A stretch of DNA of 64,000 nt from Nanobdellota archaeon. GTDB taxonomy: Archaea; Nanobdellota; Nanobdellia; SCGC-AAA011-G17; GW2011-AR17. The stretch spans positions 14,495 through 78,494 of the forward strand of contig JAHJRD010000093.1 of NCBI GenBank assembly GCA_018830945.1, written 5' to 3'. The notes beneath the pieces were generated by a model, which worked only from the letters and a program-made list of their open reading frames with translations, ran no database searches and had not been told where the DNA came from. This document shows positions 5,570 to 64,000 of the stretch, piece after piece (the stretch's first letter is position 1; each line of letters opens with the position of its first letter). The position numbers and the translations under genes were made by a program.

Positions 5570-5700
5570 TTGTAAAAGCCCTTAATAAAGCTTTTCCATA
5601 AAATTCCGCAAATATTTCAGCAAAGCTGGAAAAGTTTCAGCATTGGCGGAAAATCAGCGCAAATATCTACTGCTTTCTGAAAGATTTACAGCCTGTCTAA
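5570..5700. promoter_or_regulatory. upstream element family 1, copy C
   Basis: TTCCGC...GGCGGAAAAT inverted repeat plus CTGCTTTCTGAAAG palindrome. About 70% identical to copy D. Confidence 0.3.
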
Positions 5701-6222
5701 TTTCACAAAACCATATAAGATTATTCCGTTAAGCACATTGTTTTGCAGCGGCGAGGCGAGATTCCCTATTTCAGGCTCAAAAATAACGTGGATTTCCCTG
5801 CCCAATGATTTTTCAAATTTTGCCAAATCCAGCTTTGCTTCATGCGCTTCAACAAAAAGGTCTATATCGCTCCCTTTCCGGTAATCGCCTTTTGCGCAGC
5901 TTCCGTAAAGGATTATGCAAGAGGGCAGCGCTTTTTCCCATACATATTGTATTAGCCCTGACTGGCTTATCTGAAATACAATCTCATTCTTCTTATAAAA
6001 GAGGTAATGCTTGTTTTCAGTGTTTGCGCGGTACGTAGGATAAAGGGTTGTCTTGTTGATTGTTACAAGTTCAAGTTTAACAAAAGGAGTTATATGGTTA
6101 AGCACAGTCGCATGGTTCTGCTTCAGCCTCCTTGCTATTTCCCTTATGGAAAAGCCTGCATCAGGCTCTTCTATAAACAGCTTCAGCATCCTGTAGTCCG
6201 TATTTTCAAAAATCTTATGCAT
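5686..6222 (-). CDS. wHTH-fused minimal nucleotidyltransferase (MNT, Pol-beta superfamily)
   Basis: GS-x9-13-DxD motif (GSCAKGDYRKGSDIDL) with an N-terminal winged-helix region. Confidence 0.7.
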   Translation of the reverse strand: MHKIFENTDYRMLKLFIEEPDAGFSIREIARRLKQNHATVLNHITPFVKLELVTINKTTLYPTYRANTENKHYLFYKKNEIVFQISQSGLIQYVWEKALPSCIILYGSCAKGDYRKGSDIDLFVEAHEAKLDLAKFEKSLGREIHVIFEPEIGNLASPLQNNVLNGIILYGFVKLDRL

Positions 6223-6319
6223 TTTAATTGGTTAATAAAATAACCACCTGGTTAGAATAATAACCATAAGTTAATAAGCTTTGCGGAAGCTGCTTTCCCT
6301 CGTAAAAGCCGCCTTCCAA

Positions 6320-6859
6320 TTACTGCAACAGCCCCTCAACCTTGGTTATAAACTCATCCGCATCTGCAAACGCAGACAAAGCATTCTGCCTTGCAATAGC
6401 AGGAGTCGCATCATACTGCGCAGATTCCCTGTTTGTTTTTGCCTGCGCGAGCTTTGTTATCATCGCCTCGCTTAATGAATAAGCATTTGAAAGGCTGTGC
6501 AGGTGCTTTGCATCAAGCTTCTTCTTAAGCACATAGGCATGTTCAAGCACTGCAAGCGTTGCTGCATGGCTTCTTGACTTGAATGAGATATTTGCGAGAG
6601 CAGCCAGTGCAGAAACATACATTGAATAATAAGCTATTATGACAACCCAGTCGTATGCCTCAAAATCCGAAGGCATGCTTAACATTTCCTTAAAATCATC
6701 TTTATTGGAAATATCCATAAGAAAGGCAGCAAGCGCAAAATTCTTTCTTGCTTTCTTAAGGAAAGGCTGTTTCAGCCTTATGAATGAAACATCTTTTTCC
6801 AGCTGTTCTTTCTTGAAATATATGCTGATTCTTCTCTTGAGCATATATTCCTTTTTCAT
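6320..6859 (-). CDS. HEPN-like domain protein
   Basis: Helical ~180 aa overlapping the upstream MNT by 4 nt. Conserved YY..Y and R-x-S-A-Q-Y region. Confidence 0.5.
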   Translation of the reverse strand: MKKEYMLKRRISIYFKKEQLEKDVSFIRLKQPFLKKARKNFALAAFLMDISNKDDFKEMLSMPSDFEAYDWVVIIAYYSMYVSALAALANISFKSRSHAATLAVLEHAYVLKKKLDAKHLHSLSNAYSLSEAMITKLAQAKTNRESAQYDATPAIARQNALSAFADADEFITKVEGLLQ

Positions 6860-7488
6860 GCAGCCATCTCCCAGAAAAGCTCAAGCCCGTACAGCGGAAG
6901 CCCATACCCCTTTGCCTCTTTTCCTATGTTAAGCCCTTTTGAAGCAAGCATTTTCCTGAATTCAGCAATATCCGCAATGACAGGGCTTACCTTGATGCTA
7001 TGAGAATAGCGGAAACCAGCGCACTGCCTTTCAATCTCTGCCCTTAATTGCTTGTTTTGAATGCTGTCTATTATGAAAAGCAAATCCACATCTGAATCTT
7101 TTGCCGCACCCCCCCTTGCATAGCTGCCAAAAAGTATTATTGAGCGGATGCCTGTTTGAAGATGGTTTTCCATGTTTAGCATCAAATTTTCAGATATTCC
7201 TTTCAGCTTTACATTGCTTTTGAATAACTCCTCTTTCCTTGCAATATCCGCTTCCTGCAGGAAATGCCTTGCCTTTTCGCTTTTTAAGTTAATGAAGCAC
7301 TGCTTTGCCCTGCCGACTTCATTTATTGTTATTATGCCTTCCTTGTGCATTGCTGTCAAATGGTTGTATGCAGGCCTGTACCCTATTTTCAGTGTTCTTG
7401 CAATTTCCAGCATTGTCATCCCCTTATCCAGATTTTTCCTGAACAGCCTGATTATTTTAATTAATGTCTCCCTTCTCATATTATTCAC
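6856..7488 (-). CDS. wHTH-fused minimal nucleotidyltransferase (MNT)
   Basis: GSYARGGAAKDSDVDL motif with an N-terminal wHTH (LEIARTLKIGYRPAYNHL). Confidence 0.7.
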   Translation of the reverse strand: MNNMRRETLIKIIRLFRKNLDKGMTMLEIARTLKIGYRPAYNHLTAMHKEGIITINEVGRAKQCFINLKSEKARHFLQEADIARKEELFKSNVKLKGISENLMLNMENHLQTGIRSIILFGSYARGGAAKDSDVDLLFIIDSIQNKQLRAEIERQCAGFRYSHSIKVSPVIADIAEFRKMLASKGLNIGKEAKGYGLPLYGLELFWEMAA

Positions 7489-7570: not shown

Positions 7571-7700
7571 GCTTAATAAGGGTTTTCCCTGAATTTCCGC
7601 AAAATTTCCACCAAAACCGGAAACTCTTATGGCTAAAGCGGAAAAGCATAAGCAGAAGCCATGTTTCAGGCAGTGATTTCCAAAGTTTCTGAAAGCGAAT
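7571..7700. promoter_or_regulatory. upstream element family 1, copy D
   Basis: TTTCCGC...GCGGAAAA inverted repeat plus GTTTCTGAAAGCG. Lies 5' of the MNT gene that starts at 7488. Confidence 0.3.
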
Positions 7701-7763: not shown

Positions 7764-9521
7764 TTACTTTCTGCCTTTTTTGGAAGCAATGTGGGCTCTT
7801 GTTTCTGTCCTTCTCACGCTTCTCGCCTCGCGCCTTGCCACTTTTTCTGCCATTTCTCTTTTCTTTTCCGCTTTCCTTGCCAGTTCCTCTGTATGCTGCG
7901 CAGCTTTTTCAGCAACCTCTCTCCTCATCCTCTCGCTCTCTTCTCTCTGTCTCAGTGCTTTTTGCTCAGCCCTTGCCCTTTCAGCTTGAACTCTTGCTTC
8001 CTGCGCAGCTAACTCTGTTCTGCGCTCAACTTCCTGCTCTCCCTTTTTAAGATGCTCTTCCAGTTCTTGCTTCTGCCTTGATTTTTCTTCTGCTGTTAAA
8101 ACTCTCTTTTCGCCAAACAAGCGCTTTACAATCCCTCTTCTTTCCTGGGTGCCCCTCTCCAATCTTGCCTTTGCTTCCTGCTCTTTCCTTAAGTATTCCT
8201 CGTGCGATTCCAATGCAGGCCTCTCCATTCCTTCTTTCCTCTGCCTCTCCAATTCCTGCCTTCTCTCATACTCAAGCTCGCTTCTTCTGAATTTCTCGCC
8301 GCGCAATCTTCCTTCTTCCCTTGCAAGATTATTTAATCTTCTTCTTTCTGCTCTTTCCTGCCTTGCCAGTCTTCGCCTTTCCCAGAAACCAGAAGCTTTT
8401 TCTCCAGGCTTTGGTTTTCCTTTCCCCTTTGCCTCGCGCCTTCTCTGCTTTGCCTCGCGTTTTTCCTGTTGCCTTTGCTGTTTGAGCCTTTCTTTTTGCA
8501 GTTTTGCCTTTTGTTTCTCCACTCTGATTCTTGCTCTTTCCAGCCTTCTTTCAGGGGCTGCCCAGTCTAAAATCCCCCTTCCTGCGCCCTTCACCTTGTC
8601 CTTTCCGGCTTCCCACCAGTTTCTTGTGCCATGCTTAAGCCAGTCTCCTGCCCTGCCAAGCCTGTCATGCCACCTTTGTCTCCTTGCAGCTATCCTCTCA
8701 GCCTTCCTGGCCAGCCTTGCCTGCCTTTTTTGAGCCTTTCTCTCCAGCCTTGCCTGCCTGTTTTCAGCCTTCCTTGCCTGCTTTGCTTCCAGCTTAAGCT
8801 TTACCTTCTCCTGCTTGCCTCCCAGCCTTGCCATCTTCTGCTCATGCCTTCTCTCTCTCCACCTGTCAAACAAGCCAGGCCCTTTCTCTGGCTTTGCGCC
8901 GCCTTCTCCGCCTTCCCCTCTCTTGCTCCCTGAGAGGAGATATATTATAAACAGCACAACAAGTGCAATAAGCAATAAAAGCCACCATCTCTGTGAAACC
9001 CAGTAAGTTGTGTCTTCCCACGCTTCAATATATCCGCCGCTCATTCCCATTGAGCGCAGCCAGTATGGGCTTTTCTTTACCTGCAAGACTGAAAATATAA
9101 GAACAGCATATGCAAGCAATGTGAATATCAGCTTTTTCTTTGACAATTTTCCTTCGGGGGTCACATCATCTTTTATGAATATTGTAACAATCGCATAAGG
9201 CAAAAGAGCCAGGGCAGCAATCCATATTACATTGCCCATGCCTGCAATCCACACCTCTGGCATGAACTTCATTGAAATCAGTGCAAGTATGAACGCGACA
9301 AGCATTGCAGCTGTCTGGTGCTCAGGCGGAAACGCCTTCTTAGCCCCAAGCATTAGGAATGAAAACAGTATTACAAACAATCCGATTTTTATGAAAATGC
9401 CGCTTTCTGTGCCTGCGCCAAAAAGCATCTCAGCGCCATCTTCTATAAATCCCTCACCAAGAACAGCTGGAATTGATGCAAGAACAGCGCTCCCTATTGT
9501 AATTGCTTTAATGGCTTTCAT
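7764..9521 (-). CDS. polytopic membrane protein with very long R/E/K/Q/A-rich charged helical tail
   Basis: The N-terminal ~250 aa hold several TM helices. The C-terminal ~330 aa is low-complexity charged (ERRRLNNLAREEGRLRGEKFRRSELEYERRQELERQRKE...). Start placed at the internal ATG (MKAIKAITIG) to avoid an 86-nt overlap with the 9550..10125 ORF. Confidence 0.5.
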   Translation of the reverse strand: MKAIKAITIGSAVLASIPAVLGEGFIEDGAEMLFGAGTESGIFIKIGLFVILFSFLMLGAKKAFPPEHQTAAMLVAFILALISMKFMPEVWIAGMGNVIWIAALALLPYAIVTIFIKDDVTPEGKLSKKKLIFTLLAYAVLIFSVLQVKKSPYWLRSMGMSGGYIEAWEDTTYWVSQRWWLLLLIALVVLFIIYLLSGSKRGEGGEGGAKPEKGPGLFDRWRERRHEQKMARLGGKQEKVKLKLEAKQARKAENRQARLERKAQKRQARLARKAERIAARRQRWHDRLGRAGDWLKHGTRNWWEAGKDKVKGAGRGILDWAAPERRLERARIRVEKQKAKLQKERLKQQRQQEKREAKQRRREAKGKGKPKPGEKASGFWERRRLARQERAERRRLNNLAREEGRLRGEKFRRSELEYERRQELERQRKEGMERPALESHEEYLRKEQEAKARLERGTQERRGIVKRLFGEKRVLTAEEKSRQKQELEEHLKKGEQEVERRTELAAQEARVQAERARAEQKALRQREESERMRREVAEKAAQHTEELARKAEKKREMAEKVARREARSVRRTETRAHIASKKGRK

Positions 9522-15790: not shown

Positions 15791-16936
15791 ATGCACAAAG
15801 TCTCAATTGTCAAATGCAAAACTTATAATGAAAATGAGGTTTTCAAAGCAGTTGAGAAAGCAATAAAAGATATTGGCTTTAATATAAAACCAAACTCTAA
15901 GGTGCTTCTAAAGCCGAATGTTTTAATGGGTGCAAAGCCTGAAAAGGCAATAACAACTAATCCTGCAATTTTAGATGCAGTATGCAAAATCCTCAAGAAA
16001 AAGAAATGCAAAATCTTAATCGGCGAGAGCTGCGGCCTTGTTAAAGAAGGGGGTGTATTGGAAGCGTATGAAGAGGCAGGAATAACTAAAGTAGCAAACA
16101 AATACAATGCAAAGCTCTTAAGCTTCAGCAAGGAGAAATTAAGAAAAGTGCATAATAATGCAGCGGCTTTTGCAAAAGAAATGTATCTGCCTGAGATATT
16201 ATTCAATGTTGACTTGGTGATAAGCCTTCCAAAGATGAAGACACACACATTAATGCTTTACACAGGCGCTGTAAAAGTATTGTTTGGCTGCATACCAGGC
16301 GGGAAAAAGCAGGAATACCACGCGCTTGCAAAAAAGAAAGAGGATTTTGCCAATCTTTTGCTTGACATATGGCAGAATGTAAAGCCTGGATTGACAATAA
16401 TGGATGGAATAAAAGGCATGGATGGCAATGGTCCTTCAAACGGCAATATTGTAAAGCCGGGAATAATAATGGCTTCTGAATATGCAGTTGCAATGGACAT
16501 TGTTGCTGAGCGCATTATTGGATTTGAGGGAGAAGTGCTGACAAATTCAATGGCTTTAAAACGAGAACTGATAGACAAAAAAGACGTGAAAGTGATTGGA
16601 GATGAGCCGCGGTTCAAGTTCAGAAAGCCGTCTTCAGCAGCGTCAGGCCTGCCGCCATGGCTGACTGGATTTTTCCTGAAAAAAGCAATGGCTTACCCTT
16701 ATCCAAATCCGAAAAAATGCAAAAAATGCTGGAACTGCGTTAAGGTGTGCCCTGTAGCAGCAATGAAAAAAACAAGTGAGAAAGATGCGCCTTACTGCGA
16801 CAAAAAGCTGTGCATTGCCTGCTACTGCTGCCACGAAATGTGCCCGTTTGATGCAATTGAATTAAAGAGAAGCTTCTTGTTTGCATTGCCAATAAAAGCA
16901 TACAACAGAATTCTTAACCTGATTGGAAAGAAATAG
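15791..16936 (+). CDS. DUF362 domain protein with C-terminal 2x[4Fe-4S] ferredoxin domain
   Basis: N-terminal KVLLKPNVL motif and C-terminal CKKCWNCVKVCP plus CIACYCCHEMCP. Confidence 0.65.
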   Translation: MHKVSIVKCKTYNENEVFKAVEKAIKDIGFNIKPNSKVLLKPNVLMGAKPEKAITTNPAILDAVCKILKKKKCKILIGESCGLVKEGGVLEAYEEAGITKVANKYNAKLLSFSKEKLRKVHNNAAAFAKEMYLPEILFNVDLVISLPKMKTHTLMLYTGAVKVLFGCIPGGKKQEYHALAKKKEDFANLLLDIWQNVKPGLTIMDGIKGMDGNGPSNGNIVKPGIIMASEYAVAMDIVAERIIGFEGEVLTNSMALKRELIDKKDVKVIGDEPRFKFRKPSSAASGLPPWLTGFFLKKAMAYPYPNPKKCKKCWNCVKVCPVAAMKKTSEKDAPYCDKKLCIACYCCHEMCPFDAIELKRSFLFALPIKAYNRILNLIGKK

Positions 16937-17051
16937 AATCGTCTCTGTGGGCTAAGCGAAGCGCATGCCCGCACTGTTGATCAAACAATCGAAAATCACA
17001 GATTTTCGGTGTGCCGAGAACTGATGTTCTCGAGCACTGACTGCAGTTTGC

Positions 17052-17166
17052 ATCGGAATGTGCCCGTTTGATGCAATTGAGTTGAAGAGAAGCTTGTTGT
17101 TCTCTATTCCAATAAGCATTTATTATAAAGTTCTCAACTTGATTGGAAAAAAGAAGACACCATAAG
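17052..17166 (+). repeat. displaced duplicate of the last ~100 nt of the DUF362 gene
   Basis: About 80% identical to 16836..16936 and still in frame (..MCPFDAIELKRSLLFSIPISIYYKVLNLIGKKKTP*). Separated from the gene end by ~115 bp of unrelated sequence. Confidence 0.6.
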
Positions 17167-18100: not shown

Positions 18101-19351
18101 ATGGCATACAAAGTAAAAGACATTTCTTTAAAAGACGCGGGCAAAAAGAAGATTGAATGGGCAGAGGCGCACATGCCTGTGCTTATAGCTTTGAAAGAAG
18201 AATATGAAAAAGAGCAGCCTTTGAAAGGCTTGAAGATAGCAGGCGCAATACATGTTACAAAAGAAGTGGCTGTTCTTTTGAGGACATTAACAGCATTAGG
18301 CGCTTCTGTTGCATGGGCTGGCTGCAATCCATTAAGCACCCAAGATGATGTTGCTGCTGCATTGGCTGACGAAGGCATTGAAGTTTATGCATGGAGAAAC
18401 AATCATGATGAATACTACTGGTGCATTGACCAGATTATTGCAACAAAGCCTAACTTGACAATGGATGACGGCGGAGATGTTGTTTTCAGATTGCACACTG
18501 ATTTTCCCCAGATGATGACAGATGTAATTGGAGGCACTGAAGAGACAACTACAGGCGTGCATAGATTGAAAGCAATGGCAAAAGACGGAAAATTAAAATA
18601 TCCAATAATTGCAGTTAACAATGCAGAGACAAAGTGGGACTTTGACAATATTTATGGAACAGGCCAGGGAACAATTGACGGCATTTTAAGAAGCACTTCT
18701 GTGTTATTGGCTGGAAAAAATTTTGTTATTGCCGGCTATGGCCACTGCGGCAAGGGGCTTGCAATGCGGGCAAAAGGAATGGGCTCGCATGTAATCGTGA
18801 CCGAGGTTGACCCTATACAGGCATTGAAGGCAAGGATGGAAGGATTTGATGTGATGCAGATGGATGAGGCAGTCAAGATTGGCGATATTTTTGTGACTGC
18901 AACAGGCTGCAAGGATGTTATTGTTGAAAAGCATTTCAAGCATTTAAAAGAAGGGGCTGTATTATCAAACACAGGGCACTTCAATGTTGAGGTTGATGTG
19001 AAAGCGCTTGAAAAGCATGCAAAGTCAAAAGAGGAAATAAGGGATAACTGCATGAAATATGTTTTGCCAAATGGCAAGAATGTTTACCTGCTTGCAGAGG
19101 GAAGGCTGGTTAATTTGTCAGCTGCAGAAGGCCACCCCAGCGAGGTTATGGACTTGAGCTTTGCAAACCAGGTATTGGCTTTATTGCAGATAGTGAAATT
19201 CCATAAGGACATGAAGCCTGAAGTGTATGAGATTCCTGCTGAGCAGGACCAGAGGATTGCAATGCTGAAATTAAAGTCAATGGATGTTAATCTTGATTCT
19301 TTGACAGAAGAGCAGAAAAAGTACCTTGGCTCTTATGCAGAAGGGACTTAA
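18101..19351 (+). CDS. ahcY: S-adenosyl-L-homocysteine hydrolase
   Basis: Full-length match to AdoHcyase hallmarks: HMPVL, GxGxxG NAD site (IAGYGHCGKG), and the C-terminal ...YLGSYAEGT. Confidence 0.9.
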   Translation: MAYKVKDISLKDAGKKKIEWAEAHMPVLIALKEEYEKEQPLKGLKIAGAIHVTKEVAVLLRTLTALGASVAWAGCNPLSTQDDVAAALADEGIEVYAWRNNHDEYYWCIDQIIATKPNLTMDDGGDVVFRLHTDFPQMMTDVIGGTEETTTGVHRLKAMAKDGKLKYPIIAVNNAETKWDFDNIYGTGQGTIDGILRSTSVLLAGKNFVIAGYGHCGKGLAMRAKGMGSHVIVTEVDPIQALKARMEGFDVMQMDEAVKIGDIFVTATGCKDVIVEKHFKHLKEGAVLSNTGHFNVEVDVKALEKHAKSKEEIRDNCMKYVLPNGKNVYLLAEGRLVNLSAAEGHPSEVMDLSFANQVLALLQIVKFHKDMKPEVYEIPAEQDQRIAMLKLKSMDVNLDSLTEEQKKYLGSYAEGT

Positions 19352-19359
19352 GAAGAGCA

Positions 19360-19881
19360 TTAACTTTCTGTGTATATCTCTTCTTTTGTAATATCTATTG
19401 CCTCTTTGCATATTTCCAGCAATTTCTTAATCTTATCTTTTTCTTCTATCTCTTTTTTAACGCCATACTGGTAATCTTCCCTTAAGTCTATGACATTATG
19501 CTCATGAATTTCCTTAAATTCCTCCTGATGCTGCAATGCCATAATGAACTTATTGCCCATTTTAACTTTCCCCTGCGCTTTCAGGTAAAGAATAGCAGAA
19601 ATAGTGCATTCCTGGTTCCTGCTTTCATAGCCTTGCTTGGCTAAAATAGCAAGGAAGCAATGGTAGATTGTATAAAATGCCGCGCTTGCAGACCAGTCGC
19701 TGAAGCCGCCTTTATGAAAATAAGAAATTGCCTTAAAATTATGCTCTGCTTTTCCCAAATGTGAAACTGCCAGTTCCAAATCAGGCTTAATCTCCACAAG
19801 ACCGCGGTGCTTTTTGCCTTCTGCTATTTCTTTCTTTGCCTTGTTTAAGCACCATCTTACATGATTATACGCCTGCGGCAT
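19360..19881 (-). CDS. HEPN domain protein
   Basis: Shares the YHCFLAILAKQGYESRNQ block with HEPN 41352..41831. Overlaps the upstream NTase by 17 nt. Confidence 0.6.
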   Translation of the reverse strand: MPQAYNHVRWCLNKAKKEIAEGKKHRGLVEIKPDLELAVSHLGKAEHNFKAISYFHKGGFSDWSASAAFYTIYHCFLAILAKQGYESRNQECTISAILYLKAQGKVKMGNKFIMALQHQEEFKEIHEHNVIDLREDYQYGVKKEIEEKDKIKKLLEICKEAIDITKEEIYTES

Positions 19882-20524
19882 CTGCTATTGCCTCCACTGC
19901 CTTATTTTGCCCTTTTAATACAATGCCTGTTTTAAGCGCATCAAATACAATCTTGTCCCTGGAAGCAAGATTTTCCTTTAAATCTTTCAAAGTCTGGAAT
20001 ACAGGGTGTACCATCTTAGGCAGTATTTCATTCTTTTGTTCTATCTTCTTCTTCAAAGAGCCATATTGCTCCTTGCTGACAACTATAAGCAAATCAATGT
20101 CATTATAAGGCTTATCTTTTTTAAGAGCTGAGCCGAACAGGATTATTATGTCTGCTTCATTGAACCCTTTAAATTCTTCAACCCACCGCTTATGCTTCAT
20201 TTCCGCCTCTTCCAGCAAAAGAAGCTCTATATTCTTTCGGGTTAGCGTATTGAAGTCGACCCTGAACAGTATAGCCCTGCCAAAAGCAGTTGCAGTTACA
20301 AAATGCTGCTTCTCAAGATTCTTCAATGATTTTAATGCTCCCCTTGGAGTCATGCCTACAAGCTTGCTTATCATCCTCGCATTATACCTGCTGCTGAAAT
20401 CCTTGAAAAGCAGTAGCAGTATGTTCTTTTCTTTTTCTGTTAATGCCATGGGAACCACTAGTTCATATATAGGAACTAATAGTTCTATATAAGCTTTGTG
20501 GTAGAGCAAAGGTCCATTTTGCAT
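19865..20524 (-). CDS. wHTH-fused nucleotidyltransferase (MNT)
   Basis: GSALKKDKPYNDIDL motif. Confidence 0.65.
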   Translation of the reverse strand: MQNGPLLYHKAYIELLVPIYELVVPMALTEKEKNILLLLFKDFSSRYNARMISKLVGMTPRGALKSLKNLEKQHFVTATAFGRAILFRVDFNTLTRKNIELLLLEEAEMKHKRWVEEFKGFNEADIIILFGSALKKDKPYNDIDLLIVVSKEQYGSLKKKIEQKNEILPKMVHPVFQTLKDLKENLASRDKIVFDALKTGIVLKGQNKAVEAIADAAGV

Positions 20525-20554
20525 TCCTTCTTGTCCTTAAGCCAAAGCCGCCAG

Positions 20555-21145
20555 TCAGGCTTCCTCATGCTCCATCTGCCTCCACCATTCTATCCCTGTT
20601 AGAATTATCTTTCCCTTCTTAAGGTTTTTGTAAAACTCTTTGGTAGAGTTGTGAAATGATTCCTTAAATGAAGCATAATCAAGGTAAACAGGGCTTATTT
20701 TTGTGATTGTTCTCATGCTAATCCTATTGGCTGTGTTTTCTATGCCCTTTGCATTTTCTATTTTTTGAAATACAAGCAGTATGTCAATATCCGAATCTTT
20801 TGTATAATCTCCCCTTGCATACGAGCCAAAAATCACTGCTATAACTGGCTTTTCCTCCAATTCCCGCAAAAAATCAATTATCGCTATCCTTGCTTTTGCA
20901 GGAAGCCCCTCAAGCCTTGAATATTCCACTGCATAAAGCATAGGCGTAAGGGCTTCTTTTGAATAATCTATAAAATATCTTATCTGATTGCCTGCTTTCT
21001 GCATTTTTAGCAGCTTGCTTATTTTTTTCAGGGCATAATCAACAGAGGGCATGCTTATCTTAAGCTGCTTGGACAGTTCCCTCTTGTGAATGCCTGGGTT
21101 CCTGTAAACCTGCTTCAATATCCTTATTTCTGTATTGTCATACAT
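20555..21145 (-). CDS. wHTH-fused nucleotidyltransferase (MNT), no HEPN partner
   Basis: GSYARGDYTKDSDIDI motif. Confidence 0.65.
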   Translation of the reverse strand: MYDNTEIRILKQVYRNPGIHKRELSKQLKISMPSVDYALKKISKLLKMQKAGNQIRYFIDYSKEALTPMLYAVEYSRLEGLPAKARIAIIDFLRELEEKPVIAVIFGSYARGDYTKDSDIDILLVFQKIENAKGIENTANRISMRTITKISPVYLDYASFKESFHNSTKEFYKNLKKGKIILTGIEWWRQMEHEEA

Positions 21146-21210
21146 TATATTTCAATTGGTATATAGTCTATTACAATTAGTATTTAAGCTTTTCTGTTGT
21201 TCAGGATAAT

Positions 21211-21250
21211 GCAGATGAAGTGCCTTGGCTCATATGCAGAAGGCACTTAA
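21211..21250 (+). repeat. displaced duplicate of ahcY 3' end
   Basis: CAGATGAAGTGCCTTGGCTCATATGCAGAAGGCACTTAA compared with CAGAAAAAGTACCTTGGCTCTTATGCAGAAGGGACTTAA at the ahcY terminus. It encodes ..LGSYAEGT* identically. Confidence 0.6.
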
Positions 21251-21322
21251 TCTGTAACCACCATTTAATAGAAACATTTATATAGGCAGGCATTACTGGA
21301 AAAGTAAGTATAGGGGGAAATT

Positions 21323-22339
21323 ATGTTAGATAAAGCAATTGAGATGGAAGAAGATTTTGAAGGTTTCTTTAAAGAGATAAAACCAAGAAAAAAGCCATGG
21401 TTTGGAAAAGGGCTTGCTGCGCTCGCTGCAGCTGCTTCATTGACAATGGCAGTGCCTGAAGAAGCCCGGGCTTACCATGATGACAGGATAGGCACATTGG
21501 TTGAAGTCGAAGAAGGAGAATATACCCAGATAAGAGATCCAAACCCTAATATTTTTCCTGACGAATACATGTTTATAACACTTGCAGGCACATTGATTCT
21601 TGACGGCCCTGTAAAATGCGGATTAGGCGCATTAATACTTGACACTGACTTTGAGGAATGCATAGGCCCTGCGTTATTGGGCGGGCTTTTGGATTTTACA
21701 GGCATGGCAATCGCAAGATATGATTATCCTTTTATGGGCGGCTTGGGAAAATTAACACATGACTGGGGTGTTTCAATATCAAACAATGTAATGATTGGAA
21801 TTCCAATGTTTGACAGGTTCCAGACAGATTTTGGCCCAGTGCTTTTCAGCATTGAGCACATGACAACAGACCCTGAACTGAATGTCTATGTCCAGCCAGG
21901 GGGCATTGCAGGAATTCTTGCAAATTTTGCATTAGGCAATAGGTTTGAGGTGCTTGAAACACTTTACAATCTTACTCCAACATTTACATTTCCAAACCAG
22001 AATGCATTCTTGTTTGGTTCTCGTGTAAGAGGCTTTACTCTTGGCAGCGTTATTGCATATGGAAGAGGAGAAGATACAGACGGGCTTTATTATGTGCCGC
22101 AAACAAGAGCACATGAATTAAACCATGCATTAATGTACCAGAGCATTGGAAGAATGGTTGATGACTTATTGTACCCTGAGGTTCTTATGGAAGCAGGGTT
22201 CAGCCTTGGGCCTGACCTTGCAATGATTTTGCTGCAGGCAGCTCCAACCTTAATGTATGCAATAGACAGCAGCACAACAGACATCCACAGGTATTTCCCA
22301 TTGGAGTTTGCAGCATACTCAATGGAGCAAGACCCTTAG
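21323..22339 (+). CDS. secreted/anchored HExxH (HELNH) putative zinc metallopeptidase, paralog 1
   Basis: N-terminal hydrophobic segment, HELNHAL motif, and long blocks shared with the next gene (LDRFQTDFGPVLFSIEHMTT). Confidence 0.5.
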   Translation: MLDKAIEMEEDFEGFFKEIKPRKKPWFGKGLAALAAAASLTMAVPEEARAYHDDRIGTLVEVEEGEYTQIRDPNPNIFPDEYMFITLAGTLILDGPVKCGLGALILDTDFEECIGPALLGGLLDFTGMAIARYDYPFMGGLGKLTHDWGVSISNNVMIGIPMFDRFQTDFGPVLFSIEHMTTDPELNVYVQPGGIAGILANFALGNRFEVLETLYNLTPTFTFPNQNAFLFGSRVRGFTLGSVIAYGRGEDTDGLYYVPQTRAHELNHALMYQSIGRMVDDLLYPEVLMEAGFSLGPDLAMILLQAAPTLMYAIDSSTTDIHRYFPLEFAAYSMEQDP

Positions 22340-22374: not shown

Positions 22375-23274
22375 TTGATGAAATCAATAGCAGCGCTTGC
22401 AGCAGCAGCTTCTTTAGGCATTGCTTCTTATGCAGATGAAGCAAAAGCAGACTGGTATGACGAGCAGGTTGCTGAGCAGATGTCTGAAAATGTATACCCT
22501 GATGAATACCGCTTAATAACATTGGCAAGCACACTTGTAATGGACGGGTCTTTGAAATGCGGATTAGGCGCATGGATTAACGGCACTGATTTTGAAGAAT
22601 GCATAGGGCCTGCTCTTTTCGGCGGGCTTGTTGATTACATGGGCATGGAAATAGCGCGATATAATGATACTCCTTTTGTAGGAGCCGCTGGCAAGCTTGT
22701 TCATGACTTGGGTGTTTCAATGTCAGACAACGCAGCCCTCGGCATTCCTGCCTTAGACAGGTTTCAGACTGATTTCGGGCCAGTGCTTTTCAGCATTGAG
22801 CATATGACAACTAATCCAACATTTAACATGTATTTCCAGATAATGCCTGCTGTAGGCATAATAACAAACTTTGCAGAAGGAAACCGCTTTGAGTTTTTAG
22901 AAAGCATTTCAAACCTTACTCCTGTATTTTCATTTGAAAATGCAACAAGGGAGCATTTTGGAACAAGGTATGTAGGCTATACAATGGGAAATGTGATGGC
23001 TTATGGAAGAGGGGAAAATGTTGAGGGGTATGAACCAGGAGTTGTACGCTCGCATGAATTCAACCATACTTTAGCCTATGGCAATTTCAGGTTTATCAAT
23101 GACTTATTGCCTTCCTATCCAATGGAAAGATTGCATTTAAGCTTTGGGCCTGACTTGGCAACGCTGGTTCTTGCGCTGCCTTCAAATATCTGCTTCTGGG
23201 CAGAAGGCGACTGCTATGGCTTGTACATGTCAAACCCTCTTGAGTTCTTTGCATATAGTATGCAGAATGACTGA
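22375..23274 (+). CDS. secreted HExxH (HEFNH) putative zinc metallopeptidase, paralog 2
   Basis: Signal peptide AALAAAASLGIASYA, HEFNHTL motif, tandem paralog of 21323..22339. Confidence 0.5.
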   Translation: MMKSIAALAAAASLGIASYADEAKADWYDEQVAEQMSENVYPDEYRLITLASTLVMDGSLKCGLGAWINGTDFEECIGPALFGGLVDYMGMEIARYNDTPFVGAAGKLVHDLGVSMSDNAALGIPALDRFQTDFGPVLFSIEHMTTNPTFNMYFQIMPAVGIITNFAEGNRFEFLESISNLTPVFSFENATREHFGTRYVGYTMGNVMAYGRGENVEGYEPGVVRSHEFNHTLAYGNFRFINDLLPSYPMERLHLSFGPDLATLVLALPSNICFWAEGDCYGLYMSNPLEFFAYSMQND

Positions 23275-32017: not shown

Positions 32018-32100
32018 AGGCCTGCCTCTGGCGCACATTGATTAATTTTATTTTTTCAAAACATTAAAAGCAGTTGAATTCCAGCGAAGCTCAGCTTTTC
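32018..32100. repeat. intergenic repeat family 2, copy R1
   Basis: AGGCCTGCCTCTGGCGCACATTGATTAATTTTATT...CCAGCGAAGCTCAGC is ~80% identical to 35738..35825. Confidence 0.45.
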
Positions 32101-35739: not shown

Positions 35740-35825
35740 GCAGACCTCCGGCGCACGTTAATTAATTTTATTCTTTCAAAATATTAAAAACAATAGAATT
35801 CACAGCGAAGCTCGGCTTATTTCAT
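35738..35825. repeat. intergenic repeat family 2, copy R2
   Basis: AGGCAGACCTCCGGCGCACGTTAATTAATTTTATT...CACAGCGAAGCTCGGC, lying between convergent genes. Confidence 0.45.
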
Positions 35826-40233: not shown

Positions 40234-40755
40234 ATGCCAGAGGAACAAGAACAGCAGGGGCAGGACATTGTTGTTGAGCTTGTCAACAGGGTGAGGATTC
40301 TTGAGAGCAAGTACAGCCTGATGAGCGAGAGGCTTCTTATAGTAAACCAGAACATGATTGAGCATCATAAAAAGCTGATGAAGGATTTCAGGGCAGGCGA
40401 GATGGAGATAAAAGACATCAAGAATGACCTTGAGAAGGTGAAGAATATCCTAAAGCATTTGTCAGAGGAAGCTGCTAATTTCGCAAGAAAAGACGAGATA
40501 AAGCTATTGGAAAAGTATATTAAGATGTGGAACCCTATTAATTTTATTACTGAAACTGATGTTAAAAACCTGCTTCAGAGGGAGCTGCGCAGGATTGAAG
40601 AGGGGAAACCCGAGCCTGTTGAAGTTAAAAAAGAGGCAGCAGTTCCTAAGCAGTTAAAAAAGGAGAAGAGCAAGAATGGTTTCCGAGCTAAAGGCGAAGG
40701 TGCTCGAAACTATGTTTCGGCACACCGGGATGAGAATCCCGATTGGAACCCTTGA
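40234..40755 (+). CDS. coiled-coil protein, paralog 1
   Basis: Heptad-rich. The N-terminal MPEEQEQQ resembles the start of the next gene. The 3' end runs into a family-2 spacer element. Confidence 0.4.
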   Translation: MPEEQEQQGQDIVVELVNRVRILESKYSLMSERLLIVNQNMIEHHKKLMKDFRAGEMEIKDIKNDLEKVKNILKHLSEEAANFARKDEIKLLEKYIKMWNPINFITETDVKNLLQRELRRIEEGKPEPVEVKKEAAVPKQLKKEKSKNGFRAKGEGARNYVSAHRDENPDWNP

Positions 40756-40770
40756 ACGAAACGGAGTGAA

Positions 40771-41262
40771 GTGAAAATGCCTGAAGAAGAAACACCGCAG
40801 GAGGATATGCAAGTTTCTGCCCTTAGCAGGGCTGAAGAAGAGATACCAGTGCCGTCTCCTGTTTCAGCGCCACAAATGTCAATGACGCCTTCTGCTGAGA
40901 TGCCTTCAATGCCAACTCCTCCTTCAATGGGATATGATGAGATGCAGTCAATTGTTGAGGAAATCATTGAGGAGAAATGGAAAGAGATGCTTACAAGCAT
41001 GGGTGACTTGACAACATGGAAAGTGCAGGTTGAGGATGACATGGAAGCTTCAAAGCAGGAGATTCTGAGATTGCAGTCAAGGTTTGACACAATGCAGGCA
41101 GCTATTGTCGGCAAGGTTGGGGAATATGAAGGCTCAATGAGGGACTTGTCAACTGAGATGAAGGCTTTGGAGCAGGTAATGCAGAAGATACTGGAGCCGC
41201 TGACTTCTAATATTAAGGAATTGGGAAGGATAACAGAAGATTTAAGAGGCAGGAAGAAGTAA
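40771..41262 (+). CDS. coiled-coil protein, paralog 2
   Basis: MKMPEEETPQ..., a Pro/Ser/Met-rich linker, then coiled coil. Confidence 0.4.
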   Translation: MKMPEEETPQEDMQVSALSRAEEEIPVPSPVSAPQMSMTPSAEMPSMPTPPSMGYDEMQSIVEEIIEEKWKEMLTSMGDLTTWKVQVEDDMEASKQEILRLQSRFDTMQAAIVGKVGEYEGSMRDLSTEMKALEQVMQKILEPLTSNIKELGRITEDLRGRKK

Positions 41263-41345
41263 AAGCCGGCCTCTGTCACTCCGCAAGCTGCGTTCCGAGG
41301 TCCACTTCATTGCATTCGCAGACCTCCGGCATAATTCTATTGAGA
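41263..41345. repeat. intergenic repeat family 2, copy R5 (inverse orientation)
   Basis: The reverse complement (GGTCTGCGAATGCAATGAAGTGGACCTCGGAACGCAG) matches the 35140..35193 spacer. Shares the GCAGACCTCCGGC core. Confidence 0.45.
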
Positions 41346-41351
41346 TACGGA

Positions 41352-41831
41352 CTATCCTAACACCCTTATCGTTTCCCTCTGAACCTTGAGTATCAGTTCT
41401 TTTACCCTCTTCAGCTGCTGCAAATCAATGCTTGTTTCCACGCCGTATGTGGAAATCTCCCTGGTTTCCCTTATAGTCAGGCTGGTAAGGCTGTTCTCAA
41501 CATCAAGAGTGTCAAATTGGGCAATCAAGTCCTTATCCAAATCCAGCTTATGTTCTTTTATCAAAGCAAGCATGGCGGTGATTGTGCAGGACTGATTTCT
41601 GGATTCATAGCCGTATTTGGCAAGTATTGCCAGAAAGCAGTGATAAATGGCATAAAACCCCACATTTAAAGCCCAGTCATATATCTTCAGCCTTTCAAGG
41701 GTTAATACAACACCATAATTATATTCAGACTTTTTAAGGTGCTTTTGCGCTAAATCCATGTCAGCTTTTGCCTTTACCAGCCTTTTTGCATCTTTCAGGT
41801 GCCATTTCAAATGATTGTCTATTTGCGGCAT
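41352..41831 (-). CDS. HEPN domain protein
   Basis: YAIYHCFLAILAKYGYESRNQSCT block shared with 19360..19881. Confidence 0.6.
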   Translation of the reverse strand: MPQIDNHLKWHLKDAKRLVKAKADMDLAQKHLKKSEYNYGVVLTLERLKIYDWALNVGFYAIYHCFLAILAKYGYESRNQSCTITAMLALIKEHKLDLDKDLIAQFDTLDVENSLTSLTIRETREISTYGVETSIDLQQLKRVKELILKVQRETIRVLG

Positions 41832-42421
41832 TTTTTTATTACCTCCACATATTTCTCAGGGTTATGAAATACAAGATTATCTGACATAATGCTATAAAAT
41901 GCCTTATCTTCCTTGTTTTTTAAAATATCTTTTTCAGTTATATCAACATACCTTATTGGCTGTTCAACCAGCCCTGATTTTCTTATTTCATCTTTTATGC
42001 TTTTAACCCCTGCGGATTTCCCAGCAGGGTACATAAGTAAAATGTCTATGTCATTAAAATGCCTGCTTTTTATGGACGAGCCGAATACCAACCCAAGCTC
42101 TATGCTCTCTTTAAATTTTTTCAAGCTGTGCATCAGGACAGACAGCCATTTGGGAAACTCTTCCTGGCTCAGCATGTATTCCATAAACTTTATTGCCAGC
42201 TTGCTATTGTAAGCATAAGAAAAGAAAGCGGAATTTCCTATTTCCTCTTTTACGAGCAGATTTTTGCCTGCCAAAAGGTTGCAGAGCTTATTGGCGTGGG
42301 CATGGTTGATGCCTAATATTCTTGCTAATTGCCGCGGGTTATGCCTCTCTTTGTAGCGCTTAAAAAGAAATTTGGCTATCTGGATTTCGGTCTTTGTGAA
42401 TTGTATGTTATTAACATCCAT
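41819..42421 (-). CDS. wHTH-fused nucleotidyltransferase (MNT)
   Basis: GSSIKSRHFNDIDIL motif. Start moved to MDVNNIQF because the upstream part of the listed ORF is the R6 repeat. Confidence 0.65.
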   Translation of the reverse strand: MDVNNIQFTKTEIQIAKFLFKRYKERHNPRQLARILGINHAHANKLCNLLAGKNLLVKEEIGNSAFFSYAYNSKLAIKFMEYMLSQEEFPKWLSVLMHSLKKFKESIELGLVFGSSIKSRHFNDIDILLMYPAGKSAGVKSIKDEIRKSGLVEQPIRYVDITEKDILKNKEDKAFYSIMSDNLVFHNPEKYVEVIKKCRK

Positions 42422-42467
42422 GTGTATTCTGATAGCATACAGCATATATAAGCTTTGCGTTTTGGAA

Positions 42468-42552
42468 AAGCCAGCCTCTGTCACTCCGCAAGCTGCGTTC
42501 CGAGCCCCACTTCTCTCCGCTCGCAGGACTCCGGCGCACTTCACTCAATTCC
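42468..42552. repeat. intergenic repeat family 2, copy R6
   Basis: AAGCCAGCCTCTGTCACTCCGCAAGCTGCGTTCCGAG...GCAGGACTCCGGCGCAC is ~80% identical to R5. Confidence 0.45.
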
Positions 42553-62188: not shown

Positions 62189-63208
62189 TTATTCTGATTT
62201 CTTAGGGCTTCTTGGCGCCCTTTTTGCTCTTTTGGCGCGGCGTTCGTCTTTTTCCTTTTCGCGCTGCTGGTTTGCCTCTATTGAAGCCCAGCGTTTTGCA
62301 TTAATCTTTGCAAAGTTCACAGGATTTCTTATCTTTGAGCATAAAGGCAATGGGCTGCAGAATTGTAATTCTTTATAATATTCAACCTTGTCGCAGTTTG
62401 GCGGCAAAACAATTATTTTCTGCTTCTTGTGCCAGTTTATCTGCTCCAGCACATAGTTTTCCCTCAACGGCTCAGAATGGTTATTGTTCCACTCATAAAG
62501 CTTTTTCTCAATATCTTCCCAGCTCCATCCGCAGTGTATGAGGAATTTCAACAAAAGGAACAACGCCCTCTTTTTGCCGTCATCAAGCTTTGAGCTTAGA
62601 ATCTTTTTCATGCACGGCGGGAAGCACTCTTCTTTTACAACAATCTTTTCATCCTCAATGCCTGATGATTTCTTTCTCTCAGCAGCTAAGTTTAATTTAT
62701 CCTCTGCCCTGCCGTCCCTTTTTGCTTTTTTATCCCAGTCAAATGCCTGTATTATTAATGAAGATGCCTCATTCTGCTTTGCAGCTTCCCTGTCAATGAA
62801 TTTTAATACTGGCTTTACTGCAAACGGCTTTGCCTTTTCTTTTTCAAATGTTAAAATCTCATCCTGCTTTATGGGCAAAGAAACCAGTCCTGCCTTTTCA
62901 TGCAATGAGTATGGCGCCCTGAACATGTGCCTGCTTGAAATCAAGACAGTGTCAATGTCAACTATCTTGAAAGGGTCAAAGGAACCGTCCAATATAAGTT
63001 CATCAATTCTTTTCCCTGCTTTTTCCGCTATCTGCGATATATGCTCCTTGCTTAATATTGCTTCTGACAAGTGCCCTTTTATCATGTTTTGGAGGTAAGC
63101 AGCAATCACTCTCAGGCTTTCAGGGAACAGGTCTTTTGTTTTTATGCCGTTGACTTCGTCAGGGAATGCCTCAAAAGGCACTGCAATATGAAACCCCTTG
63201 TTTCCTGA
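62189..63208 (-). CDS. C-extein downstream of an intein junction; provisionally archaeo-eukaryotic primase small subunit (two short PriS-like motifs only) with a Cys-rich C-terminal domain
   Basis: The intein ends at ...LLLHN and the host sequence resumes at S230 (SGNKGFHI). SGNKGFHI resembles PriS motif II and VDIDTVLISSRHMFRAPYSLHEKAGL resembles motif III; these two short stretches are the whole basis for the primase call. The C-terminal Cys-rich stretch (CFPPC...HCGWSWED...NCD...C..C) is unassigned, a PriL-like Fe-S domain being one guess. The protein N-terminus lies beyond the window. Confidence 0.35.
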   Translation of the reverse strand, partial: SGNKGFHIAVPFEAFPDEVNGIKTKDLFPESLRVIAAYLQNMIKGHLSEAILSKEHISQIAEKAGKRIDELILDGSFDPFKIVDIDTVLISSRHMFRAPYSLHEKAGLVSLPIKQDEILTFEKEKAKPFAVKPVLKFIDREAAKQNEASSLIIQAFDWDKKAKRDGRAEDKLNLAAERKKSSGIEDEKIVVKEECFPPCMKKILSSKLDDGKKRALFLLLKFLIHCGWSWEDIEKKLYEWNNNHSEPLRENYVLEQINWHKKQKIIVLPPNCDKVEYYKELQFCSPLPLCSKIRNPVNFAKINAKRWASIEANQQREKEKDERRAKRAKRAPRSPKKSE

Positions 63209-64000
63209 ATTATGCAGGAGAAGAGGATAATAATTCCCAAAAAAAGCCTCTGTTCCTTTAACAGAAATGTCATAAACTTTAGCAGAACTTTTTTTGGTTA
63301 TGGATTTTACTTGTAAAATACCCACATCAGAATCTAATAATAACTCATAATTTGCAATAATCTCCTTTGAATGAGCATCAAATTCATTAGAATTAAATCT
63401 CTTGAACCATTTTATTACATTCCATATTCTTTCTGCATTGGCTCTTTTCTTGCGTAATGTCACCTGTTCAAGGCGATGATAATTAAAAAATTTAGGTTTA
63501 ATTTGCAAATAGACTCTTTTAAGCCCGTCAACTGGAAAGGTCCTATCTCTTGGGAATGGAGAAAATTTATTCCTACCCCTGAAAAATTCCTGTAAATTAA
63601 GCTCAGATTTCGGTATATTGAGTATATAAACAAAACTTCCTTTGAATATATTACCCTGCGGCAGTTTATGGGGCTTATTTTGTTCACAAGAAAGGGAGCA
63701 AGAAATCCCGTTTAATTTACAAAGCCAGAGCAGTTCAGTAATGAGCTTATGCGCAACAGATTTAATAGCGATATGGTATTTGCCCAGCTTATAACCATCG
63801 CCCCTTATATAGCCCTTTAAAAGTTCCATAAAAAGGGGTTTAGGAAGATTCCAAGCAAATTCAGGTATATGCTTATTCTTTTTTTTACCGCACAAATTCT
63901 CAAAAAAAGAAGCCCATTCTTTGGAATGGATTAATATTTGTGTAGAACCAGCATTAGGGTGCCTTATTGAGATATGCCTTTTCGTTACGCTTAAAAGAAG
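63209..64000 (-). mobile_element. intein (LAGLIDADG homing-endonuclease type), C-terminal part; continues past window end
   Basis: Block F/G VYDISV...FGNYYPLLLHN|S, LAGLIDADG-like LLKGYIRGDGY. The reading frame stays open through 64000. Confidence 0.6.

Follow-up and report, generated by a model that had tools for sequence, protein, structure and literature searches.

We found that the 3′ end of ahcY, the gene for S-adenosyl-L-homocysteine hydrolase, is duplicated in the 64-kb stretch of DNA from a Nanobdellota archaeon analyzed here (the window), and that the two copies form a sharp-edged direct repeat around a composite toxin-antitoxin cassette without an integrase. The architecture recurs in a second species, and related genomes carry ahcY with neither cassette nor repeat. 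This arrangement of the ahcY end in two species resembles what a minimal integrating element would leave behind.

A direct repeat of the ahcY end around a composite cassette

The ahcY gene (18101–19351, forward strand) is intact. Its product has the full length of 416 amino acids, matches Pfam AdoHcyase (2.8e-81) and AdoHcyase_NAD (6.4e-59), ends in the conserved YLGSYAEGT, and is 86 to 90% identical to the orthologs in the related genomes L001, L023, and L114. A repeat finder detected a 40-nt direct repeat on the forward strand. Copy 1 (19312–19351, attL-like) is the functional gene end with the last 12 codons and the TAA stop, and copy 2 (21211–21250, attR-like) is a noncoding orphan. The two copies are identical at 35 of 40 positions (87.5%) and in frame; the recurrence of about 39 nt described in the initial annotation is thus real, with its identity corrected from ~85%. 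In translation, copy 1 reads QKKYLGSYAEGT and copy 2 reads QMKCLGSYAEGT; the frame and the TAA stop are shared, in agreement with the common LGSYAEGT terminus noted earlier. The homology begins abruptly just before GCAG and ends at TAA. Within the window, the orphan is the sole further copy of the ahcY end at 65% identity or more. Because the best of 200 shuffles reached 27 of 40 matches, none of 300 shuffles equaled the real local-alignment score, and the stretch is not of low complexity, we ruled out chance and low complexity, the latter having been raised in the initial annotation as a possible source of the similarity.

Two further readings of the repeat were rejected. The differences between the copies (A/T, A/G, A/G, T/A, and G/C) are not adenine specific and no reverse transcriptase was present among the scanned ORFs, which rules out the variable and template repeats of a diversity-generating retroelement. 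The window orphan, together with nucleotides 21210 and 21251–21256, folds into an imperfect hairpin of 16 to 18 bp (−25 kcal/mol, z −4.8). No such fold was found in the L125 orphan of the second species or in the real ahcY ends of four relatives. Since the fold is confined to the window orphan among the sequences compared, a conserved function for it was ruled out.

The segment between the repeats spans 1,859 nt and is composed of MNT2, a 17-codon stump of HEPN′, and a second MNT-HEPN module. Pfam gave only HEPN and MNT (minimal nucleotidyltransferase) domains, which bears out the earlier reading of one HEPN and two nucleotidyltransferase genes on the reverse strand and of an insert lacking an integrase. 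The cassette and ~60 of the window's 69 ORFs of at least 80 amino acids yielded no integrase, transposase, or recombinase. The conserved core of the cassette is MNT2 (20555–21145, 196 amino acids), which combines a winged helix-turn-helix (wHTH) with a nucleotidyltransferase domain (PF01909, PF18765, and HTH_24). Its 120 homologs among the matches listed are spread across DPANN lineages, and all have 195 to 198 amino acids (nearly all 196) and 67 to 92% identity. Upstream of MNT2 lies its promoter region (21146–21210, reverse strand), with the BRE/TATA element AGAAAAGCTTAAATA and a short spacer to the orphan repeat. This region shows ~90% nucleotide identity to L125 and L126, two assemblies of the second species, as far as window position 21197, and 87% to L124.

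Downstream, MNT2 overlaps by 14 nt the stump of its original partner HEPN′ (20518–20568, reverse strand), as it does in L125 (7447–7460). By tblastn, all 17 codons of the stump match the N terminus of the 181–amino acid HEPN protein of L125, whose own Pfam HEPN match is modest (3.5e-05). The stump was truncated by the later MNT1-HEPN module, which took the place of the rest of HEPN′. In that module, MNT1 (19865–20449, reverse strand, 194 amino acids, PF18765/PF01909, Polbeta/NTP_transf_2), whose start codon was set by alignment to 194–amino acid homologs, overlaps by 17 nt (19865–19881) the gene of its toxin-type partner HEPN (19360–19881, reverse strand, 173 amino acids, PF05168 at a modest 8e-06). 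The latter gene converges on ahcY with a stop-to-stop distance of 8 nt. The 815 homologs of this HEPN protein are mostly from DPANN, each with an MNT gene of ~194 amino acids before it. In an alignment of 12 homologs, R-E-x3-Y was invariant, and there was no conserved histidine where Rx4-6H expects one. The left edge of the module is the MNT1 promoter/operator (20450–20497, reverse strand), in which AAAGCTTATATA precedes two GAAC-N5-GTTC palindromes. This region is conserved in L117, L111, and L112, and homology to these loci begins at the BRE/TATA element. The nucleotidyltransferase motif GS-x(9-10)-DxD, as read off the translations, is FGSYARGDYTKDSDIDIL in MNT2 and FGSALKKDKPYNDIDLL in MNT1.

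The second species and the empty sites

L125 and L126, which were assembled independently, represent a species whose SecD is 78% identical to that of the window. The order in both is ahcY, 10 nt, HEPN′, MNT2, promoter, and orphan ahcY end. The repeat is 44 nt long, and the orphan matches its own ahcY end at 40 of 44 positions. The left limit of the repeat within ahcY coincides to within 1 nt in the two species (GCAG/GCAA, Glu-Gln codons), and in both the orphan is placed immediately upstream of the MNT2 promoter, 13 to 22 nt away. Such agreement would not be expected from independent illegitimate joins.

The orphans differ from their own genes by five (window) and four (L125) mismatches and from each other by 11. 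They carry host-specific substitutions, so that each is nearer to the ahcY end of its own genome than to the other orphan. In L125, all four mismatches lie at positions 4 to 14 and the other 29 nt are identical, including 3 nt beyond the stop, a pattern that looks like a diverged arm next to an identical core. On their left sides, the orphans have just one derived base in common (G at position 12), which falls short of demonstrating an element-borne arm. MNT2 is 90 to 91% identical at the protein level to its counterparts in L124, L125, and L126. The fraction of identical codons at conserved residues between the window and L125 was 0.78 for MNT2, as compared to 0.52 to 0.66 for SecD, SecF, AhcY, DUF155, and DUF362. 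This lower synonymous divergence hints at a more recent exchange of MNT2, although it could reflect constraint instead of transfer.

The p299-like gene, SecD, and SecF are syntenic around the cassette in the window and in L125 and L126. In L124, MNT2 is present in the same neighborhood, ahcY has been lost, the orphan is unrecognizable, and a search for an ahcY remnant found none. The window DUF155 and DUF362 proteins are 88 and 83% identical to those of L124 but only 65 to 74% to those of L023 and L114, while SecD shows 75 to 78% identity to all three alike. No recombination breakpoint was visible along ahcY in sliding windows against five orthologs. The 3′ end of the neighboring DUF362 gene is likewise duplicated, and its orphan resembles a different, coding-constrained allele. 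The first host gene past the cassette slot (21323–22339, forward strand, 338 amino acids) is a paralog of the gene at 22375–23274, and L114 has a single ortholog of it directly 3′ of ahcY.

A comparison with related genomes, proposed in the initial annotation, did reveal empty ahcY sites. In L023, ahcY is followed by SecD, and in L114, L115, and L043 only a gene for a 305–amino acid protein lies between them. None of these loci has the cassette or the repeat, and all share the DUF362-DUF155-ahcY...SecD-SecF synteny of the window. The closest of these relatives are at genus level, so that none of the empty sites is truly isogenic. No relative nearer to the window organism turned up in genome, metagenome, or protein collections (best AhcY identity, 90%). 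The gap 3′ of ahcY is a hot spot, since 0, 1, or about 9 genes separate ahcY from secD in related genomes. Rfam and tRNA scans of the 64-kb window gave no matches.

We found no duplicated ahcY end, at a threshold of at least 28 of 40 matches, in 100 other bacterial and archaeal ahcY loci, and so rejected the idea that integration generally targets this gene end. Searches for a free or elsewhere-placed copy of the element and for a parent virus or plasmid were negative, with no MNT2 relative in viral contigs. Two viral matches to the ahcY-end pattern were dismissed as chance, as both lie inside a 568–amino acid ORF on the other strand. In L127 to L136, more distant MNT2-HEPN′ pairs adjoin a convergent isochorismatase gene whose end is not duplicated, and the repeat footprint is absent from the MNT1-HEPN module of L117 and from the window's two other HEPN/MNT cassettes. 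Thus, the footprint is not general to these toxin-antitoxin families.

Origin of the arrangement

We give a probability of roughly one half to the reading that the repeats are attL/attR-like and enclose a very small toxin-antitoxin element that has no integrase and bears a replacement ahcY end. The element would comprise the MNT2-HEPN′ pair with its promoter, along with an ahcY terminus of its own, and it would integrate within the last 13 ahcY codons by recombination inside the shared stretch. Integration would join ahcY to the replacement end, which would account for the intact AhcY, and push the other copy downstream by 1.9 kb, where it would lie as the orphan. Because the element has no recombinase, the exchange would depend on an integrase supplied in trans or on host homologous recombination over 30 to 45 nt. 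Recombination between the copies would then excise the cassette precisely and restore an empty site like those of the relatives. We infer the recombination step, its enzyme, and a circular intermediate from these arrangements. The lengths involved are in keeping with the 29 to 69 bp reported for archaeal att sites, and in Thaumarchaeota, 14 of 68 integrated elements lie in the 3′-distal part of protein-coding genes, with the new stop provided by the element (PMC6563490). The window element underwent later remodeling, when the MNT1-HEPN module took the place of most of HEPN′, and it is probably fixed now, because its repeats have drifted to 5 mismatches in 40. Of the mobile-element footprint originally proposed, insertion into the ahcY 3′ end with the gene left intact is supported by the empty sites and by L125 and L126, while the view of the three genes as one inserted unit gives way to an HEPN′ stump and a later MNT1-HEPN module.

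The initial annotation left a choice between decay of a larger element and a cassette that is itself the cargo. As the unit shared by the two species is only MNT2 (with its HEPN partner) and the orphan end, our data favor a minimal cassette whose mechanism of movement would be encoded elsewhere. A stronger version, which we consider unlikely, is that the module is itself the minimal integrating element: It would carry a ~40-nt mimic of a highly conserved essential-gene end, with host homologous recombination alone inserting it, excising it, and moving it between related DPANN species, and with addiction retaining it.

The main alternative, possible but doubtful, is one ancient insertion of MNT2-HEPN′ at the ahcY end of a common ancestor, which would have duplicated ~40 to 45 nt and descended vertically, with some losses by repeat recombination and with gene conversion keeping the orphan similar. 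The locus and boundaries shared by both species and the syntenic p299-like gene, SecD, and SecF agree with it, and L124, with neither ahcY nor a recognizable orphan, fits decay once the conversion template was gone. Conversion would nevertheless have had to act repeatedly over just 40 nt, while host third codon positions are near saturation (0.45 to 0.67 identity), and at least two precise losses would be required (L023, L114, and possibly L001). The lower synonymous divergence of MNT2 and the clustering of L125 mismatches in the left 14 nt are also left unexplained. Homology-facilitated illegitimate recombination, or in situ gene displacement, is known from naturally transformable bacteria. 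Here, DNA from a related strain, anchored in ahcY, would have brought an ahcY end plus cassette, with its far end joined ~40 nt upstream of the resident stop, so that the resident end became the orphan. The mosaic locus, with DUF155 and DUF362 near L124 and SecD equidistant, and the duplicated end of the adjacent DUF362 speak for such an event, but two independent joins would not share both the ahcY nucleotide and the distance to the MNT2 promoter, and ahcY lacks a visible breakpoint. Reduced to a single ancestral event, it collapses into the ancient insertion, and we regard it as quite improbable.

Still slimmer are the chances of a transposon-like insertion in which site-specific staggered cuts ~40 to 44 nt apart in the ahcY end produced a very long target-site duplication. 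In its favor, both copies track the sequence of their host, and the repeat has constant boundaries; however, we know of no target-site duplication of such length, the cassette ends, as read from the sequence, have no terminal inverted repeats, no transposase or casposase is present, and the L125 mismatch clustering is again unaccounted for. Duplications by casposons are described as arising from staggered cleavage (PMC6563490). We attach next to no credence to an integron-type gene cassette with the orphan as a folded, attC-like site. The strong hairpin of the window orphan and the toxin-antitoxin arrays of related DPANN contigs, with repeated elements between cassettes, speak for it, but the structure is not conserved in L125, which effectively refutes the attC reading. 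Moreover, inspection of the boundaries showed no RYYYAAC/GTTRRRY boxes, there is no IntI-like gene, and the orphan is plainly a derivative of ahcY coding sequence.

Toxin-antitoxin modules have been described as mobile, selfish two-gene units (PMC2701414). The movement of a bare two-gene cassette is rarely visible, and here it would be marked by clean att-like edges in an essential gene of two species, with empty sites elsewhere. Provided that the integrase-less element is active, it would rank with the smallest known integrating units of archaea and also be a DPANN example. To our knowledge, mobile elements of DPANN are little studied. Should host recombination alone suffice, the locus would show in concrete terms how toxin-antitoxin cassettes can move without an integrase.

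Comparison with known systems

The cassette genes resemble HEPN-MNT type VII toxin-antitoxin modules: MNT precedes HEPN, and the stop of the first gene overlaps the start of the second (by 17 nt in MNT1-HEPN and by 14 nt in MNT2-HEPN′ of L125). The Pfam domains agree, and the modules are multicopy and occur in arrays. In contrast to such modules, the MNTs of the cassette have an N-terminal wHTH, the HEPN proteins seem to lack an obvious Rx4-6H, and MNT2 is unusually conserved (67 to 92% identity among the matches listed). At the level of the locus, homology-facilitated illegitimate recombination similarly leaves behind part of the resident gene's end beside the incoming allele and is a good fit to the DUF362 duplication, but identical junctions in two species are not among its predictions.

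Closer in structure are the cis-mobilizable elements (CIMEs) of Firmicutes, remnants of ICEs or IMEs in which attL and attR persist but the genes for integration and transfer are lost (Guedon et al. 2017, PMC5704250). CIMEs and the ahcY cassette are both bounded by att-like repeats containing the target's 3′ end and have no integration or transfer genes; because neither has an integrase, any mobility depends on the functions of another element. CIMEs differ in being bacterial and in being defined by descent from a known ICE or IME with a known integrase, while no parent element was found for the ahcY cassette among 100 other ahcY loci and viral contigs. Origin by two parallel decays is argued against by the shared unit of the two species, which is already minimal.

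Integrated mobile elements are also known from the 3′-distal regions of archaeal protein genes, an example being NitEve-E2 of Nitrososphaera (Krupovic et al. 2019, PMC6563490). As a rule, they far exceed the present insert in size and encode a tyrosine integrase or casposase, whereas the ahcY cassette measures 1.2 to 1.9 kb, holds only toxin-antitoxin genes without a recombinase, and resides in a DPANN host. Both have attL/attR repeats of tens of nucleotides, a host reading frame completed by the element, and empty sites in relatives.

The duplicated ahcY end and its empty sites

The window comes from the chromosome of a DPANN archaeon. The best relatives of its AhcY are found in Nanoarchaeia MAGs, and no genome in the collections searched encodes an AhcY more than ~90% identical to it. 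The initial annotation reported that the 3′ end of ahcY (18101-19351) recurs in frame downstream, and our analysis bore this out. The last 40 nt of the gene (19312-19351) have a second, noncoding copy at 21211-21250, hereafter the orphan, with 35/40 identical positions, the same frame, and the same TAA. The similarity has a sharp left edge before GCAG and a sharp right edge directly after the stop codon. The best match among 200 shuffles was 27/40, and in a Smith-Waterman control, none of 300 shuffles matched as well. No further copy at ≥65% identity was present elsewhere in the 64 kb.

We compared orthologous ahcY loci of relatives, as had been proposed, and found empty sites. Contig L023 carries the order DUF362-DUF155-ahcY-SecD-SecF, while in L114, L115, and L043, DUF155 and a NUDIX gene precede ahcY, which is followed by a 305-aa gene, SecD, and SecF. 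Neither the second ahcY end nor the HEPN/nucleotidyltransferase cassette is present at any of these loci. In the window, ahcY is followed by the cassette, the orphan, genes of 338 and 299 aa, five more genes, SecD, and SecF. The 338-aa (21323-22339) and 299-aa (22375-23274) genes are tandem paralogs of unknown function (74% nucleotide identity over 314 nt). The latter is orthologous to the 305-aa gene, and L114 and L125 each have a single copy of the paralog gene. Between ahcY and secD there are 0 genes in L023, 1 in L114, and ~9 in the window, which makes this gap a hot spot.

Composition of the cassette

Pfam assigned the three cassette genes, all on the minus strand, to a HEPN protein (19360-19881), a minimal nucleotidyltransferase, MNT1 (19865-20449), and a wHTH-nucleotidyltransferase, MNT2 (20555-21145). 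The initial annotation noted the lack of an integrase here, and we found no recombinase in the cassette. The view of the three genes as one inserted unit did not hold, as MNT1-HEPN is a self-contained module and MNT2 had a partner of its own, HEPN′. The promoter/operator of MNT1-HEPN, AAAGCTTATATA followed by two GAAC-N5-GTTC palindromes, is kept in unrelated contexts in contigs L117, L111, and L112. Elsewhere, MNT2 is followed by a HEPN′ of 179-181 aa with a 14-nt overlap. Of HEPN′, the window retains no more than the 17 initial codons (20518-20568; 17/17 identical to L125), after which MNT1-HEPN begins, so a module swap took place inside the slot.

Among the 120 MNT2 homologs listed (P0241-P0360), the length is 195-198 aa, nearly always 196, and identity is 67-92% across Woese-, Pace-, Nano-, and Aenigmarchaeota. 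The conservation of this family is well above the usual for an antitoxin. In the HEPN alignment (A12), both families lack a clear Rx4-6H motif; invariance is seen at R-E-x3-Y and at D-W and Y..YH motifs.

Distant MNT2-HEPN′ pairs adjoin an isochorismatase gene whose end is not duplicated, MNT1-HEPN in L117 lacks gene-end repeats, and the two other HEPN/MNT cassettes of the window lack a duplicated host gene end. Thus, these toxin-antitoxin families do not leave the gene-end footprint as a rule. The two other cassettes (5686-7488 and 40710-42544, both minus strand) have a similar three-gene layout; Pfam detected wHTH-MNT, HEPN, and wHTH-MNT in the former and HEPN only in the latter. The former is flanked by a direct repeat of 75 nt (5581-5655 and 7572-7650) that resembles a promoter/operator. 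Repeated elements of 45-130 nt (86-97% identity) also separate successive toxin-antitoxin cassettes in the DPANN contigs L111 (2767-7716), L112 (4334-5600), and L127 (515-7185), the L111 element carrying a BRE/TATA-like box and a TTTTCC...GGAAAA palindrome.

The junction in a second species and other rearrangements

Through MNT2 homologs we located L125 and L126, two independent assemblies of one species whose SecD is 78% identical (amino acids) to that of the window. Their order is SecF-SecD-p299-like-MarC-MNT2-HEPN′-ahcY, with ahcY convergent with HEPN′ and 10 nt from its stop. An orphan ahcY end lies directly upstream of the MNT2 promoter and matches their own ahcY end at 40/44 positions. 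Both species share the ahcY position at which the repeat starts (GCAG/GCAA, ±1 nt) and the placement of the orphan relative to the MNT2 promoter. Each orphan is closer to its own gene end (5 mismatches in the window, 4 in L125) than the orphans are to each other (11). All four L125 mismatches fall within positions 4-14, and the remaining 29 nt, 3 of them past the stop, are identical; this repeat looks like an identical core beside a diverged arm.

In L124, MNT2 (90% identity) and 40 codons of HEPN′ occupy the same neighborhood, and no orphan is recognizable. The absence of ahcY and most of HEPN′, gone from between MNT2 and DUF155 (8578-8930), indicates that the locus also underwent deletions. 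Upstream of MNT2, this contig has a TrmB-like gene fragment encoding the C terminus.

The window orphan with 7 flanking nt (21210-21256) folds into a 16-18-bp near-perfect hairpin (-25 kcal/mol, z -4.8), which ranks with the most stable local structures in the 64 kb. No such fold was found in the live ahcY end, four orthologous ends, or the L125 orphan, and as it is confined to one lineage, the hairpin does not belong to the integration mechanism. Three of the five orphan substitutions each mend a mismatch in an older quasi-palindrome, and none breaks a pair. Template switching may have perfected the quasi-palindrome in a copy free of constraint, or the hairpin may have been selected as a terminator or insulator.

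The DUF362 gene (15791-16936) likewise has a duplicated end: its final ~102 nt (16835-16936) have a second copy 220 nt downstream (17055-17166), in frame and with 76% identity; differences number 7/4/13 at codon positions 1/2/3. The live copy is of the L124 type and the orphan copy of the L114 type; the latter lies 10 nt from the stop codon of DUF155, a convergent gene. The two stops abut in L124 and L023, which are empty here, and the window DUF362 and DUF155 are far nearer L124 than the flanking genes are. This end looks as if a diverged allele had replaced the original and been joined imprecisely, and the locus thus recombines with related genomes by more than one route. The 120-nt spacer between the copies (16937-17056) has no Rfam match and contains three strong hairpins, its MFE being -46.6 kcal/mol (z -3.95). 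At both ends it matches the region between DUF6932 and DUF155 in L114 (6465-6590). Candidate identities are a small structured RNA and a miniature element.

Elsewhere, a 74-nt direct repeat (86% identity; 32025-32097 and 35745-35818) fills two gaps between convergent genes and brackets 3.6 kb with six small genes; the copies could serve as a common terminator or mark the ends of a further insert. A minus-strand primase-like ORF with large- and small-subunit domains (62189-63895) has a weak intein-splicing domain match.

Origin of the repeat and known systems

The identical junction in both species excludes independent illegitimate joins. We favor, with a probability of about one half, an att-type system in which the element brings its own ahcY-like segment and recombines with the ahcY end. 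This is suggested by the core/arm pattern of L125, by the patchy distribution among relatives, and by orphans that track their hosts although synonymous divergence of host genes is near-saturated. Synonymous divergence of MNT2 is also lower than that of its neighbors (identical codons among conserved residues, 0.78 versus 0.52-0.66). The remaining possibility is a single ancestral insertion, with the shared junction inherited, the repeats kept alike by gene conversion, and the cassette precisely lost in some lineages. The initial interpretation of an integration footprint is upheld in part: the second species with the same junction and the empty sites strengthen it, whereas the three genes are not a single unit.

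Beyond the cassette, no recombinase was detected in ~60 of the 69 window ORFs of ≥80 aa, and a search for a parent element turned up none. For the att-type reading, the 40-44-nt repeat falls inside the range reported for att sites of archaea (29-69 bp), where documented integrations include some into the 3′-distal part of protein genes (PMC6563490). Among known concepts, the bacterial CIME comes closest, a remnant that has flanking att sites but lacks integration genes (PMC5704250); the cassette is likewise flanked by att-like repeats and devoid of a recombinase. It may be CIME-like, or else host homologous recombination could act on the short shared segment.
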